NCBI GenBank assembly: GCA_035543375.1 | Contig: DASZZF010000002.1 | Span: forward strand, 67,202-131,201 | Reading direction: 5' to 3' | DNA length: 64,000 bases | Origin: Candidatus Limnocylindria bacterium | GTDB taxonomy: Bacteria > Chloroflexota > Limnocylindria > P2-11E | In this document: positions 5,934 to 46,925 of the stretch, in pieces | Numbering within the stretch: position 1 is the first letter of the stretch | How the letters are laid out: the number at the start of each line of letters is the position of its first letter | Notes under the pieces: generated by a model | Database searches by the model: none | What the model saw: only the letters and a program-made list of their open reading frames with translations | Told to the model about the DNA's origin: nothing | Program-made: the position numbers and the translations under genes

Positions 5934-5937
<4 letters not shown>

Positions 5938-9804: not shown

Positions 9805-10670
9805 TACGCCGTCGCCCGCAATGCGCGCGCGATCGCCTCGCGGCTACCGCCATCCCACTCCGCGACGGCGGCGCGCAGCTCCGGGCGACGCCGCAGGACG
9901 TTGCGCACCGCTGCCGTGACCGCGCGGCCCACGAACGGCCGGGCGTCGGCGGCGAGGAACGACAGGATCCCGAATGCCCGCTCGGCGACGCGCGCCCCCG
10001 ATGCGGTCGTGAACGCCATCGCGACATTCCAGCGGACGTTCTCGTCGGGCTCGCGAGCCCACCGCTCGAGCGTGGCGAAGGTCTGGTCGGGGTAGGAACG
10101 CAGGAACTGATCTCCGATGGCGAACGGGCCGAGGCTCCGACGGACGTATTCGTCATGGTCGGTGCGCGCCGGGGCGACGAGCGCGAGTAACCGCTCGGCC
10201 CGCTCGGGTCGTCGCGACCGGGCCGCGTACTTGGCACCGACGACGACCGCGCGCCGGAGCCGGGCATCGCCCGATGCCATCCACCCTTCGGCGATCCGCA
10301 GATACGGATCGAACCGGCGCTCGAGGGCATCGCCGAGCAGCGACGCTGACGTCTCGCGCACCTCCCAGTCGTCGTCGCGGGCGAGCCGATAGATCGCGCG
10401 CTCGAGGTCCGGCTGGTGGCTCTCCACGAGCGGCCGCAACATCACCGCGGCGAGCTCCTTGTCGACCCGGCGGGGATGCGCGAGCAGCCGCGCCGCCCAG
10501 TCGCGCCGGACCAGGGAGGCGACGCTCATGGTCCGCACGACCGCGGTCGCGCGCGAGAATGCGGCCTTCCTCACCCACCCGTTCTCGCCCGTATTCCGCA
10601 GGATGTCGGAGGCGCGCAACGGATCGCCGTCGGCGAGGGCGTCGCGGAACGCGCCCTCCCAGTCGATCAG
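9804..10670 (-). CDS. HEAT-repeat protein (DNA alkylation repair AlkC/AlkD-like, tentative)
   Basis: Repeated DxxWxVR-type HEAT motifs (RDDDWEVRETSA, EPDENVRWNVAMAF). The track ORF 9804..11105 is 5'-extended through the aminotransferase gene. I placed the provisional start at CTG 10668-10670, which overlaps the aminotransferase TGA. The alternative start is GTG 32 codons downstream. Confidence 0.6.
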   Translation of the reverse strand: MIDWEGAFRDALADGDPLRASDILRNTGENGWVRKAAFSRATAVVRTMSVASLVRRDWAARLLAHPRRVDKELAAVMLRPLVESHQPDLERAIYRLARDDDWEVRETSASLLGDALERRFDPYLRIAEGWMASGDARLRRAVVVGAKYAARSRRPERAERLLALVAPARTDHDEYVRRSLGPFAIGDQFLRSYPDQTFATLERWAREPDENVRWNVAMAFTTASGARVAERAFGILSFLAADARPFVGRAVTAAVRNVLRRRPELRAAVAEWDGGSREAIARALRATA

Positions 10671-40643: not shown

Positions 40644-41255
40644 CTAGTTCGGTTCCCCGATGTCCAGGGGCAGCCCGAAATCCCAGTACTCGACGACGTA
40701 GCTCGTTTTGACGCTCGCGAGGCCGCTGCCGTCGGGTGCCACGGCCTCCGTCACGGTGAACGACTGCCGGCGGATGAGGTCATCGAGCAGGCCGAGCTCG
40801 ACCTCCATCACGCCACGCTCGCGGCGGTCGATCCGGTATCGCATGGTGAGTTTGCCGCGCGCGAATCCGAGGCCGACGAACGACGCCGACGCCGTGCCCG
40901 GCTCGCGGGCCTGCTCTAGGAGGGCCTGCGGGTGCGCGAGCGTGCGCAGCGGGGCTGGCGGGACAGGCCGGCCATCGCGCCAGGCGCGCGAGCCGACGAT
41001 GACGAGCGTGGCCGGCACCGGCTCGGTGAGGGCAAGACGCAGCCGGTCGGGCGGTACGAGCTCACCGGTCGCGTGATAGCCGAGCGCGAGATCGCCATCG
41101 GACCGGGCGCCGCTCGCGACGCTTCGCGCGTCGATGGCGAAGCGGACGCCGCGCAGGCGCTCCATGCCGGCGACGGCGCGACCGACCCGATCCCCCGGCC
41201 CCACCTGGGCGCACGCGGCGAGCAGCAGCGTCGCAGCGAGCAGGCTGCGCCTCAC
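40644..41255 (-). CDS. putative lipoprotein
   Basis: GTG start with lipobox LLLAACAQ. GTGA overlap with the tatD stop. Trimmed from track ORF 40644..41558. Confidence 0.65.
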   Translation of the reverse strand: MRRSLLAATLLLAACAQVGPGDRVGRAVAGMERLRGVRFAIDARSVASGARSDGDLALGYHATGELVPPDRLRLALTEPVPATLVIVGSRAWRDGRPVPPAPLRTLAHPQALLEQAREPGTASASFVGLGFARGKLTMRYRIDRRERGVMEVELGLLDDLIRRQSFTVTEAVAPDGSGLASVKTSYVVEYWDFGLPLDIGEPN

Positions 41256-42010
41256 CAACCCGGACCGAACAGCGCGCGTGCGGTCGCCTCCGTCTCCGCG
41301 ACGAGCGCGGCGAGCGTCATCCGCCGCTCCAGCGCGAGCCGCGCGTACGTCGCAGCGACGAACGCCGGCTCGTTCCGCGTCCCGCGGTGGCCCTCGGGTG
41401 CGAGAGAGGGCGCGTCCGTCTCGACCAGCAGCGGACCATCGGCGGCCGCGGCGGCCCGCAGCCGCGCGTTCGCCGGATAGGTCACCGGGCCCGCGAACGA
41501 TGGCACGAGCCCGCGAGCGCGCCAGCCGGCGAGCTCCTCGGGCCCCTCGCTGTAGCAATGCAGCTGACCCCGGACAGGTCCATCGCGGCCGTCGAAGAGC
41601 GCGCGCACGGTATCCCCGGCGTCGCGGATGTGCACGACCACGGGGAGGCCGAGTGCCGCGGCGAGATCGAGCTGGAGCAGGAACGCGCGTTCCTGCACCT
41701 CGAGCGCCGCGCTGCGGCCGGACAGATCGATCCCGATCTCGCCGATGGCGACGACGCGCTCGTCCGCGGCGAGCGCCGCGAGCGCGGACAGCGCCTCCTT
41801 GTCCAGCGAGGCAGCGCGATGCGGGTGCACGCCGACCGCGACGCGAACGATGTCATGCGCCCGCGCGATCGCCACCGCGCCGGCGCTCGTGCGGATATCT
41901 TCGCCGCAGGTGAGGATCCGGCTGATCCCCGCATCCCGGGCGCGCGTGATCACGGCACCCAGGTCGCCGGAGAAGCGCGCATCGGTGAGATGCGCGTGCG
42001 CATCGATCAG
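41252..42010 (-). CDS. tatD: TatD-family metal-dependent hydrolase
   Basis: LIDAHAHL...GEIGID...VVHIRDA...LVETDAP motifs. The conserved N-terminus begins exactly at CTG 42008-42010, which overlaps the metG TGA. Confidence 0.85.
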   Translation of the reverse strand: MIDAHAHLTDARFSGDLGAVITRARDAGISRILTCGEDIRTSAGAVAIARAHDIVRVAVGVHPHRAASLDKEALSALAALAADERVVAIGEIGIDLSGRSAALEVQERAFLLQLDLAAALGLPVVVHIRDAGDTVRALFDGRDGPVRGQLHCYSEGPEELAGWRARGLVPSFAGPVTYPANARLRAAAAADGPLLVETDAPSLAPEGHRGTRNEPAFVAATYARLALERRMTLAALVAETEATARALFGPGW

Positions 42011-43551
42011 GCCTTCGCCGTCTCCAGTCGGGGGAACAACGGCGGGCCGGCGTGCACGCGCTGGCCGGGTCGGAGCAGACCCCAGCGCGCGACATCCGAC
42101 CACGGAGCGGACGCCGGCGAGGGCAGCCCGAGCTGCGCGGCTATCGCGTCGGCGACGTTCGGCATGTAGGGCCAAAGCGCGTGCGCGGTGATCCGCAACG
42201 CCTCGAGCCCCGCGTAGAGCGATGCCCCGACACTTGCGGCATTCGCCGGATCCTTCACCATCTGCCAGGGCTGCGTGACCTGGTAGTGCTTGTTGGCCGC
42301 GTCGATGAGCGAGAAGATCGCGGCTAACGCGTCTGCGAAGTACAGCTGCTCCGCGGCCGCGTCATGCTCTGCCACGGCGCGCGTCGCCGCCGCGTGCACG
42401 GCGCGCTCGGACTCGCCCTGCGCGGCAGGGTCCGGCACAGCGCTGTCGCAGTACGTCTCGACCATTTTCAGGGTGCGCGACACGAGGTTCCCGAGCCCGT
42501 TCGCGAGATCGGCGTTGAAGCGCGTATTGAACTGCTCCGGGCTGATCGGCGAGTCCTTTTCGAACGGCGCCTCGCGCAGGACGAGGTAGCGGATCGCGTC
42601 GGATCCCCACTCCTTCGCCGCGGCAAGCGGGTCGATCATGCCGCGGCGCAGCCGCCCGTGCCCGCCAAATTCCAGGAACCCGTGTGCGAAGACGGTCCGC
42701 GGCAGCTCCACTCCGGCGGCCATGAGCATCGCCGGCCAGTAGATGCAGTGAAAGCGCGTGATGTCCTTACCGATGACATGGACGTCGCACGGCCACCACG
42801 ACTTGAACTTAGCCTCGTCGGTCCCGAACCCTACGCCGGTCGCGTAGTTGATCAACGCGTCGAACCAGACGTACACGACGTGGTCGGGATGATCGGGGAA
42901 CGGGATGCCCCACGTGAGATTGCGTCGCGACACGCTCACGTCGCGGAGACCGCGATCGAGCCAACCAAGTACTTCGTTACGACGGATCTCCGGCTCGCAG
43001 AACTCCGGATGCTCGCGGTACAGATCCTTCAGTCGCTGCTCGTACTTCGTGAGCCGGAAGAAATAGTTCTCTTCCTTCAGCTGTTGGATGTACGCGGGGT
43101 CTTCGGGGTGGATCGGGCACCGACCATCGACGATGTCCGCTTCCTCGTAGAACGCCTCGCAGCGCGTGCAGTACAGCCCCTCGTACGTCGCGAGGTACAC
43201 GTCGTCGTTCGCGATCCAGCGGCGAACGAATTCCTGCACTCCTCGCACATGATCCGGATCGGTCGTGCGGATGAAGCGGTCGTACGAGATGTTCCAGGTG
43301 TCCGCCATCTGCTTGAATTCCGCGGCGTGGCGGTCGACGAGGACCCGGACATCCTCGCCGGCCTCCTTCGCGGCGCGCTCGTTGCGCGTCGCGTTCTCGT
43401 CAGTGCCGGTGAGGAAGAACACCTCGCGCCCTCGCTGCCGGTGGAACCGCGCAAGCGCGTCCGCACCTGTGAATTCGTAGGCGTGATGCAGCCCGGGGCG
43501 ATCGTTCACGTAGGCGATCGCGGTCGTCACGTAGAACTTCGGTGCCGGCAC
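42007..43551 (-). CDS. metG: methionyl-tRNA synthetase
   Basis: FYVTTAIAYVNDRPGLHHAY (HIGH-type). Class I core, 514 aa. GTG start. Confidence 0.95.
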   Translation of the reverse strand: MPAPKFYVTTAIAYVNDRPGLHHAYEFTGADALARFHRQRGREVFFLTGTDENATRNERAAKEAGEDVRVLVDRHAAEFKQMADTWNISYDRFIRTTDPDHVRGVQEFVRRWIANDDVYLATYEGLYCTRCEAFYEEADIVDGRCPIHPEDPAYIQQLKEENYFFRLTKYEQRLKDLYREHPEFCEPEIRRNEVLGWLDRGLRDVSVSRRNLTWGIPFPDHPDHVVYVWFDALINYATGVGFGTDEAKFKSWWPCDVHVIGKDITRFHCIYWPAMLMAAGVELPRTVFAHGFLEFGGHGRLRRGMIDPLAAAKEWGSDAIRYLVLREAPFEKDSPISPEQFNTRFNADLANGLGNLVSRTLKMVETYCDSAVPDPAAQGESERAVHAAATRAVAEHDAAAEQLYFADALAAIFSLIDAANKHYQVTQPWQMVKDPANAASVGASLYAGLEALRITAHALWPYMPNVADAIAAQLGLPSPASAPWSDVARWGLLRPGQRVHAGPPLFPRLETAKA

Positions 43552-46034: not shown

Positions 46035-46925
46035 CTACACGCCGTCCGCTGTCACGCGGACCGACTGCGCGATGAGGATCCCACCGATGACGACCGCTCC
46101 GCCAAGCACCTGCGGCAGCTGGAGCGATTCACCGATCAGCAGCCACGCGGCGATCGCCGCGACGACCGGCTCGCTCGTCGCGGTCAGGCCGACGCGCGCG
46201 GCGGGGATCAGCCGCACGGCGGCGACGGTGAACAGGTACGGGATCACCGTCGCGATCACGACGACCCCGAAAACGAGAAGCCCGATCTCGCCGGTCACGC
46301 TCGACCACGGCATCGCCCAGAGCGGTCGAACGATGGCCCAAGCCAGCAGCGCGCCGCCGAAGCCCCAGGTGAGCAGGGTCCAGGTGGAATAGCGGACGAC
46401 GAGCCGCTCCGCGACCAGGAAGTACACCGCGAAGATGAACGCGTCCACCGCCGCGAGGAGCGCGCCCAACGCATTCAGCTGCCGGAGCTCGGCGTCGTAC
46501 GCTCCGACGACGAGATAGCAGCCGGTGAGCGTCACCGCCGCGGCGAGCCAGAGCTGCGGCCCCACACGGCGACCGCGGGTCCGCCAGTACACGAGGATGA
46601 GCAGCGGCGCGGTGTACTCGATCACCAGCGCGACCCCGAGGGGAATGCGCTGGATCGCCTCGTAATAGATGAGCTGCACGCCGAACACGCCGAAGAGCGC
46701 GAACAGCCCGACGAGTGGTAGGTCGGCGCGCTGCACCCGAAGGTCCGCGCGCCGGAAGGCGAGCGTGATCGCGAGGAAGGCGAGAAAGCCGAAGAGGATC
46801 CGCCACTCGGCGAGCACGGAGGGGTCGATGCCGAGCGCGAACGCACGCTTCGCGATGACGCCGCCGACCCCGTAGAAGGCCGCGCCACCGACCGCGAACA
46901 GGTAGCCGAGCGCGATGCGGCTCAG
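46035..46925 (-). CDS. EamA/DMT-family transporter
   Basis: Ten-TM DMT pattern. The first helix (SRIALGYLFAVGGAAFYGVGGVIAKRAF) lies upstream of the track ORF start (GTG 46817) in an open frame that has no ATG/GTG/TTG. CTG 46923-46925 overlaps the nadE TGA. Confidence 0.85.
   Translation of the reverse strand: MSRIALGYLFAVGGAAFYGVGGVIAKRAFALGIDPSVLAEWRILFGFLAFLAITLAFRRADLRVQRADLPLVGLFALFGVFGVQLIYYEAIQRIPLGVALVIEYTAPLLILVYWRTRGRRVGPQLWLAAAVTLTGCYLVVGAYDAELRQLNALGALLAAVDAFIFAVYFLVAERLVVRYSTWTLLTWGFGGALLAWAIVRPLWAMPWSSVTGEIGLLVFGVVVIATVIPYLFTVAAVRLIPAARVGLTATSEPVVAAIAAWLLIGESLQLPQVLGGAVVIGGILIAQSVRVTADGV

Follow-up and report, generated by a model that had tools for sequence, protein, structure and literature searches.

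A CTG codon overlapping the metG stop as the probable start of a TatD-family nuclease gene in Candidatus Limnocylindria

Background

Where does a bacterial gene begin if the N-terminus of its protein family falls on a codon that is not among the accepted start codons? This question is raised by a tatD-family gene that directly follows metG, the gene of methionyl-tRNA synthetase, on a contig of Candidatus Limnocylindria bacterium, an uncultured soil organism (Chloroflexota; DASZZF010000002.1, positions 67,202 to 131,201, assembly GCA_035543375.1). The stretch of 64,000 nucleotides (nt) analysed here, referred to as the window, comes from contig C2 of a metagenome-assembled genome that is 63% complete. 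Gene finders for metagenome genomes accept only ATG, GTG and TTG, and the public calls of this gene comprise a product of 283 amino acids (aa) with a 31-residue tail at NCBI and one of 233 aa without the catalytic His-x-His in Logan, a collection in which a form of 252 aa was not found.

The initial annotation of the locus had pointed out that the frame with the TatD motif begins at a CTG that shares bases with the TGA stop codon of metG, and that the nearest in-frame canonical start is a GTG located 31 codons upstream, inside metG; both statements are confirmed by the sequence (Table 1). We consider it highly likely, with a probability of roughly 0.88, that TatD is a 252-aa protein begun at CUG 42010..42008 by ribosomes that have just finished metG, and that the 283-aa and the 233-aa calls are probably both wrong, the true product being 252 aa long. 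Sequence and comparison give the position of the N-terminus, the invariance of CTGA, an unconstrained upstream extension, cases in which CTG on TGA is the sole start, and a normal initiator tRNA.

Results

The N-terminus of TatD

Read from the junction, the tatD frame is CTG ATC GAT GCG CAC GCG CAT CTC, i.e. L-I-D-A-H-A-H-L. Besides the H-A-H at codons 5-7, the translation contains GEIGID, VVHIRD, QLHCYSEG and VETDAP, which we take, by the known fold of the family and not from a structure, to be the later Glu, His, His and Asp metal-ligand positions. The Pfam profile PF01026 (TatD_DNase) is matched over its full length (E 3.8e-56, positions 1-253 of 253), with position 1 falling on the Ile that follows the CTG, while the NCBIfam profile TIGR00010 (E 4.6e-52, positions 1-251 of 253) has its position 1 aligned with the CTG codon itself; the latter match, at 177 bits, lies under NCBI's cut-off of 206 bits. 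On the strength of the full-length profile match, the product is a predicted metal-dependent nuclease of the TatD/YchF family.

The C-terminus of MetG, which ends in LFPRLETAKA before the stop, aligns with its relatives. CTG and TGA share two bases, which gives CTGA at 42010..42007 and makes the co-directional genes overlap by -4 nt. The tatD frame is open far upstream of the CTG, inside metG. RNA structure at the junction was found to be unremarkable (minimum free energy -43.3 kcal/mol, z -1.84).

The junction in relatives

The comparison covered the junctions of every one of the 24 species in the genus, of about 55 species from seven further genera in the family, of two species from a second family of the order, and of other families of Limnocylindria; the metG-tatD pair is present in every Limnocylindria family sampled. 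Six sister genera, with about 50 species, mostly have GTG at the codon aligned with the CTG, besides ATG in four cases and TTG in one, and this codon sits 4-30 nt past the metG stop. It must be the start codon there, because an in-frame stop often lies only 1-5 codons upstream, and the N-terminus of the family accordingly reads M-I-D-A-H-A-H. In the genus g19, a canonical overlap, GTGA, is located two codons upstream of the aligned codon, and TatD homologues of other phyla begin at the CTG-aligned residue or one or two residues earlier.

Across the genus, whose TatD orthologues are 70-74% identical, a tree of MetG and TatD places two species with GTG at the base, followed by a crown of 14 species. 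According to this tree CTGA arose once, at the base of the crown, and was kept in 12 of the 14 crown species; the metG stop is found at the equivalent relative place in 12 of the 14 as well. One crown species (L013) has lost the overlap, its metG stop lying 31 nt earlier, and carries TTG at exactly the codon aligned with the CTG; TTG accounts for only 4% of the Leu codons in the genome of the window. In another (L007), which reads CTC ATA G, a new metG stop TAG overlaps ATA (ATAG) in an equivalent geometry, and the locus L114 reads ATC CTA G, without CTG. The CTG position is thus replaced in relatives only by other start codons: GTG, ATG or TTG in the sister genera, TTG in L013, ATA on TAG in L007 and ATC in L114. 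None of 14 related loci departs from CTGA, whereas the two bases ahead of it differ (MetG ends on TCC, GCC, CCC, TGC or CTC), so that conservation sets in abruptly at the C; this indicates that the layout is more than chance. The codon after the CTG is ATC or ATA in all crown loci.

One locus proved decisive. Since in all 13 genome-derived species of the genus a canonical start exists somewhere upstream, the absence of an alternative could not be decided from these genomes alone. A 52-kb soil metagenome contig (L111), however, encodes a TatD that is 71% identical, with the MetG tail and the CTGA as in the window; its tatD frame has a TAA 17 codons upstream of the CTG and contains no ATG, GTG or TTG before the His-x-His, so that the CTG is the only possible start. 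The proposal of the initial annotation that TatD begins at the CTG is therefore supported both by this in-frame stop and by the orthologues with GTG, ATG or TTG at the CTG position.

A second set of such loci was found in a sister family (f4), where the metG TGA is overlapped by an in-frame CTG in all 29 loci with a visible metG end, representing about 15 genera. Here the CTG lies about 14 codons before the catalytic Asp, and a conserved peptide, L-S-R-x-R-x-P-x-x-L-P-G, runs from the CTG on, with diversities of 0.30, 0.27 and 0.51 at codon positions 1, 2 and 3, which is a coding pattern. Sequence upstream of the CTG is unconserved, the last MetG codon being AGC, CCC, ACC, TCC, GGC or CGC, and in nine of the loci no canonical start is present from the upstream in-frame stop to the His-x-His. 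By this comparison, the metG-tatD pair of f4 is predicted to use CTG on TGA independently and unambiguously.

In a further family (f2), two loci (L019 and L036) have metG and tatD in one frame, split by TAA and then ACG GCG CGA TAC GTC GAC, with no canonical start before the His-x-His; a sister species (L021) has GTG at the position of the ACG of L019. The ACG that adjoins the metG stop in L019 may be the tatD start.

The extension upstream of the CTG

The 31 codons between the upstream GTG and the CTG encode VGCRALGSAPTRPARARRPAVVPPTGDGEG, a stretch rich in Arg, Pro and Ala that is the -1 frame of the MetG C-terminus (...PWSDVARWGLLRPGQRVHAGPPLFPRLETAKA, then stop); the extended form of TatD would include ...PPTGDGEGLIDAHAHLTDAR. 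If the tatD frame were coding here, the third positions of metG would be constrained. No such protein-level constraint was found: third-position diversity of metG is 0.408 in the overlap (last 32 codons), as against 0.37 +/- 0.055 in windows of 32 codons elsewhere in metG. Scored by codon log-odds, the tatD frame gives -0.37 per codon over the 31 codons before the CTG, which resembles non-coding sequence, versus +0.27 after it.

Upstream GTGs are by-products of conserved Pro-Trp and Arg-Trp pairs of MetG (CCG TGG and CGG TGG). Upstream starts are found at -31 or -32 in 10 of 13 species (one of them ATG) and at -25 or -26 in five of 13, and the position of the GTG in the window has no counterpart in three of 13; their frequency is about that predicted from codon usage (Pro CCG 65%, Arg CGG 32%). 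That the extension frame is open is uninformative, as under neutrality the probability of finding no stops is about 0.8 per species. The suspicion of the initial annotation that the extension is metG read out of frame thus agrees with the -1 frame match, the third-position diversity and the log-odds, and conservation of the extension at the protein level, which it had proposed to look for in relatives, was not found.

Other probable starts on stop codons in the same genome

A genome-wide count was made on the source assembly (G000) with a home-made, codon-usage-based gene caller, which yielded 1509 genes. The downstream frame is open in -1 at the upstream stop in 170 GTGA, 169 ATGA, 21 TTGA and 113 CTGA junctions; ordinary TGATG overlaps make up 54 of the 113, and canonical -4 stop-start junctions number 360. 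Under a strict criterion, by which no canonical start is allowed within 4 codons upstream or 11 codons downstream and the coding signal has to start from the junction, 19 CTGA junctions remain and only one CTAG junction. Requiring no more than a distance of at least 5 codons to the next start proved too loose and was dropped, as ordinary short spacers pass it too. Relative to canonical overlaps, strict CTGA junctions amount to 19/360 in G000, 4/70 in genome G028 and 4/181 in two controls, Zavarzinia and Cyanobium (1.5 Mb); of the four control hits, three are refuted by Pfam and the fourth has no domain. One observation concerns the Cyanobium control in its own right: its mutS (L330-L369, index 327012) seems to be split or frameshifted, and MutS domain IV begins 5 residues past a CTGA junction.

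Judged by Pfam domain boundaries, at least five other genes of this genome have a CTG on the upstream TGA as their sole possible start: cdd, accC and the genes of an EamA transporter, an AAA_33 kinase and a GT2 glycosyltransferase. From its CTG start, the kinase has its P-loop at residues 9-15. The EamA transporter gene, which lies in the window behind nadE, lacks any upstream canonical start, and inside the gene the first is met 36 codons from the CTG. The CTGA of cdd (L271-L286; G000:C11:78108-78515) is found only in this genome, while that position is ATGA or GTGA in 13 of 15 congeners and the remaining two have GTG one codon upstream; this looks like a recent switch from a canonical to a CTG start within a -4 overlap. 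In accC, which encodes biotin carboxylase (L245-L258; G000:C2:160075-161577), one and the same junction is CTGA in four species and ATA on TAG in ten, with no canonical alternative; in L252, an in-frame stop lies upstream and no canonical start precedes VLVANRGEIA. For the genes of inositol monophosphatase and RibF (ribF) in G000, ATA on TAG is the only possible start. GGAG or GAGG occurs within -20..-4 at 45% of the CTGA-type starts of this genome; the corresponding values are 29% for canonical -4 overlaps and 13% for random positions. Motifs of this Shine-Dalgarno-like kind are as common before the CTGs as before canonical overlaps.

In the window, two further CTGA junctions were seen, at 5934-5936 (plus strand) and 10668-10670 (minus strand), with coding signal from the CTG onward; the nearest canonical starts lie 40 and 17 codons further downstream and 66 and 120 codons upstream, respectively, and one of the two genes resembles a membrane transporter. 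Two CTAA junctions without canonical starts, in G000:C4 (plus-strand index 39485) and G000:C6 (plus-strand index 49977), both read CTAACG, with ACG on the last A of TAA as a -1 overlap; the genes are a GAF histidine kinase and an ABC permease.

Alternative explanations

Several points weigh against a start at the CTG of the window. An in-frame canonical start lies 25-56 codons upstream, with no stop between, in the window and in the 13 genome-derived species mentioned above, so that an extended protein is physically possible in this species, and it is the one that NCBI annotates. Conservation of the CTG is also expected of an internal Leu codon, its TG being fixed by the metG stop, and TatD proteins whose start lies one or two codons earlier usually have Leu here. 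The next codon, AUC, is near-cognate too and cannot be separated from CUG at this locus. The genome-wide count depends on our own gene caller, and the excess of CTGA junctions over the two control genomes is not significant (Fisher p ~0.12), which is why we make no claim that CTGA starts are special to Limnocylindria.

The open frame with its canonical start, the NCBI call and the usual Leu speak for a start at the upstream GTG, or at another canonical codon inside metG in other species, which would give TatD a poorly conserved, Arg/Pro/Ala-rich tail of 25-56 residues and make the CTG an internal Leu codon. We regard this as improbable. Co-directional overlaps of the length that it requires, 93 nt here and 75-168 nt in relatives, nearly always turn out to be annotation artefacts, and the start would be placed at -25, -26, -31, -32 or -56 without conservation, following the Trp codons of MetG at the rate set by codon usage. 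Neither extra third-position constraint in metG nor coding-like codon usage in the tatD frame accompanies it, and no SD-like (Shine-Dalgarno-like) motif was seen before the GTG when the sequence was read by eye. In L111 and the nine f4 loci such a start is impossible, and L013 carries its rare TTG exactly at the aligned codon.

A start at the AUC that follows the CUG (42007..42005), with a -1 nt overlap UGAUC and a product beginning fMet-Asp-Ala-His and shorter by one residue, would be conceivable, as AUC initiates in E. coli about as strongly as CUG, the second codon is ATC or ATA throughout the crown, and L114 has the ATC without the CTG. The canonical start of the sister genera, however, falls on the CTG position and not on the following codon, and in other validated CTGA genes of the genome the second codon is AGG, AGC or ACC (AGC or ACN in f4), none of which is able to initiate, so that CUG is the common element; we hold this alternative to be distinctly less probable than the upstream GTG. 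Least credible, to the point of being negligible, is a -1 ribosomal frameshift at the end of metG that would yield a MetG-TatD fusion with no separate initiation: although tatD occupies the -1 frame relative to metG, with no stop across the junction in any genome-derived species of the genus that was checked, and a slow UGA could favour slipping, there is no slippery heptamer at the junction, re-pairing in the P site is unconserved given the variable bases ahead of CTGA, the sister genera keep the two genes apart by a spacer and a canonical start, and the CTGA layout also joins unrelated pairs such as nadE and a membrane transporter.

Table 1. Features of the metG-tatD junction and of a second CTGA junction in the window
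Feature	Position in the window	Strand	Basis
metG, methionyl-tRNA synthetase, 514 aa, upstream partner of the presumably coupled pair	43551..42007	minus	Open reading frame; Pfam tRNA-synt_1g (E 4e-94) and Anticodon_3
Next in-frame canonical start upstream, TTG, 55 codons from the CTG	42175..42173	minus	Frame walk
Rival start GTG, 31 codons upstream, inside metG; start of the NCBI call (283 aa)	42103..42101	minus	MetG Pro-Trp (CCG TGG)
SD-like GGAG, 11 nt 5' of the CTG, from conserved MetG Leu-Glu codons (CTG GAG)	42025..42022	minus	Sequence
Proposed tatD start CTG (CUG), forming CTGA with the metG stop	42010..42008	minus	Family alignment, profiles, L111
metG stop TGA, its TG common to the tatD start codon	42009..42007	minus	Read from the sequence
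tatD-family gene (YchF/TatD, YabD-like), predicted metal-dependent nuclease, 252 aa from the CTG	42010..41252	minus	PF01026, TIGR00010
First metal-binding motif His-x-His (CAC GCG CAT), codons 5-7 from the CTG	41998..41990	minus	Sequence; conserved in all relatives
Downstream GTG, codon 20, start of the 233-aa public call; His-x-His lost	41953..41951	minus	233-aa cluster member
EamA transporter start CTG on the nadE stop TGA	46923-46925	minus	Pfam EamA domain from residue 6

Discussion

If TatD begins at the CUG, ribosomes that terminate metG at the UGA would re-initiate at the overlapping CUG, and an ordinary initiator tRNA would serve this near-cognate codon within the -4 nt stop-start overlap. 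The product would be fMet-Ile-Asp-Ala-His-Ala-His..., with Met presumably as its first residue, that is, the usual N-terminus of the family without an extension. The initiator tRNA of the genome is normal, with anticodon CAU, a C1xA72 mismatch and three G-C pairs. A special initiator tRNA was considered and rejected, as no initiator-like tRNA with anticodon CAG was found in the 63%-complete genome; likewise, the lack of initiation factor IF3 was discarded as a cause, its gene infC being present in 12 of 13 genomes. A separate observation is that the infC of this genome (L390, G000:C10:3810-4556) has no ATG, GTG or TTG before codon 59 of its open frame; an SD motif, GGAGCGGAG, is followed by ATA at codon 14, directly ahead of the conserved N-domain, like known non-canonical infC starts.

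CTG and ATA are exactly the near-cognate codons that are able to share two bases with a stop codon, and AUA on UAG is the only other solution that appears besides CUG on UGA. In E. coli, four codons initiate with about 1-2% of the strength of AUG, and both are among them (10.1101/063800). A synonymous metG change of the C of CTGA to G, A or T would create a canonical start and leave the TatD protein unchanged, and codons ending in G are preferred in this genome (GCG 56%, CCG 65%). Because the C is nevertheless invariant in two clades, in 29 of 29 f4 loci and in 14 crown loci, it is suggested, but not proven, that the weak codon is selected and not merely tolerated; we put this forward tentatively, at slightly less than even odds. 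The weak codon might then be kept to hold TatD well below MetG. If it is indeed selected, CUG or AUA on a stop codon would amount to a distinct and maintained 'attenuated coupling', by which a protein of low abundance, here a nuclease, is held at a minor, constant proportion of a plentiful protein encoded upstream; such coupling would operate at about 5% of the -4 overlaps in these genomes and escape the gene finders now in use.

That a CUG start appears to be kept across whole families at one junction suggests that re-initiating ribosomes may be less strict on the start codon. Alternatively, selection may have favoured a weak start on a stop codon as a means of keeping the expression ratio low and fixed. 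Mis-called starts also appear to affect at least seven other genes of the genome, including cdd, accC, ribF and a transporter, and by implication many database proteins from uncultured high-G+C bacteria may be affected.

Comparison with known systems

The locus is presumably equivalent in genes, order and strand to the metS/metG-yabD pair of Firmicutes and Actinobacteria (the gene order of B. subtilis and M. tuberculosis), in which yabD encodes a TatD-family protein and, to our knowledge, has a canonical start. Within the genome studied here, other CTGA genes such as that of the EamA transporter have no canonical alternative, unlike the tatD of the window, for which comparative tests were therefore needed.

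Overlaps of -4 nt (ATGA, GTGA, TTGA) are known to mediate translational coupling by termination-reinitiation (Huber et al. 2019, PMC6728339; PMC10666635; review PMC12548453). The metG-tatD junction resembles them in that the genes are co-directional, two bases are common to the start and the upstream TGA, different species retain the geometry, and an SD-like motif inside the upstream gene is optional. It differs in its start codon, a near-cognate CTG in place of ATG, GTG or TTG, and in that coupling is here inferred from the sequence. A near-cognate variant of the -4 overlap is not discussed in PMC6728339, PMC10666635 or PMC12548453: 'CUG' occurs 0 times in the 2025 review (PMC12548453), and the 2023 paper (PMC10666635) gives only ATT as a rare non-canonical case.

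Near-cognate starts as such have been described in Bacteria, including rpsL of Deinococcus deserti, whose CTG start was proven by N-terminal proteomics, the Deinococcus dnaA (ATC), the plasmid gene for RepA (CTG) and infC (ATT or ATA) (PMC2830850). The start of rpsL is backed by peptides, while the CTG of metG-tatD is a start proposed from sequence comparison. As in Deinococcus, a conserved CTG is found where relatives or the family profile place the N-terminus, and gene finders mis-call the start. On the other hand, PMC2830850, in which the one occurrence of 'overlap' has nothing to do with these starts, does not report a tie to an upstream stop, whereas here the CTG is always on TGA and, where the overlap has been lost, as in L013, a canonical codon takes its place.

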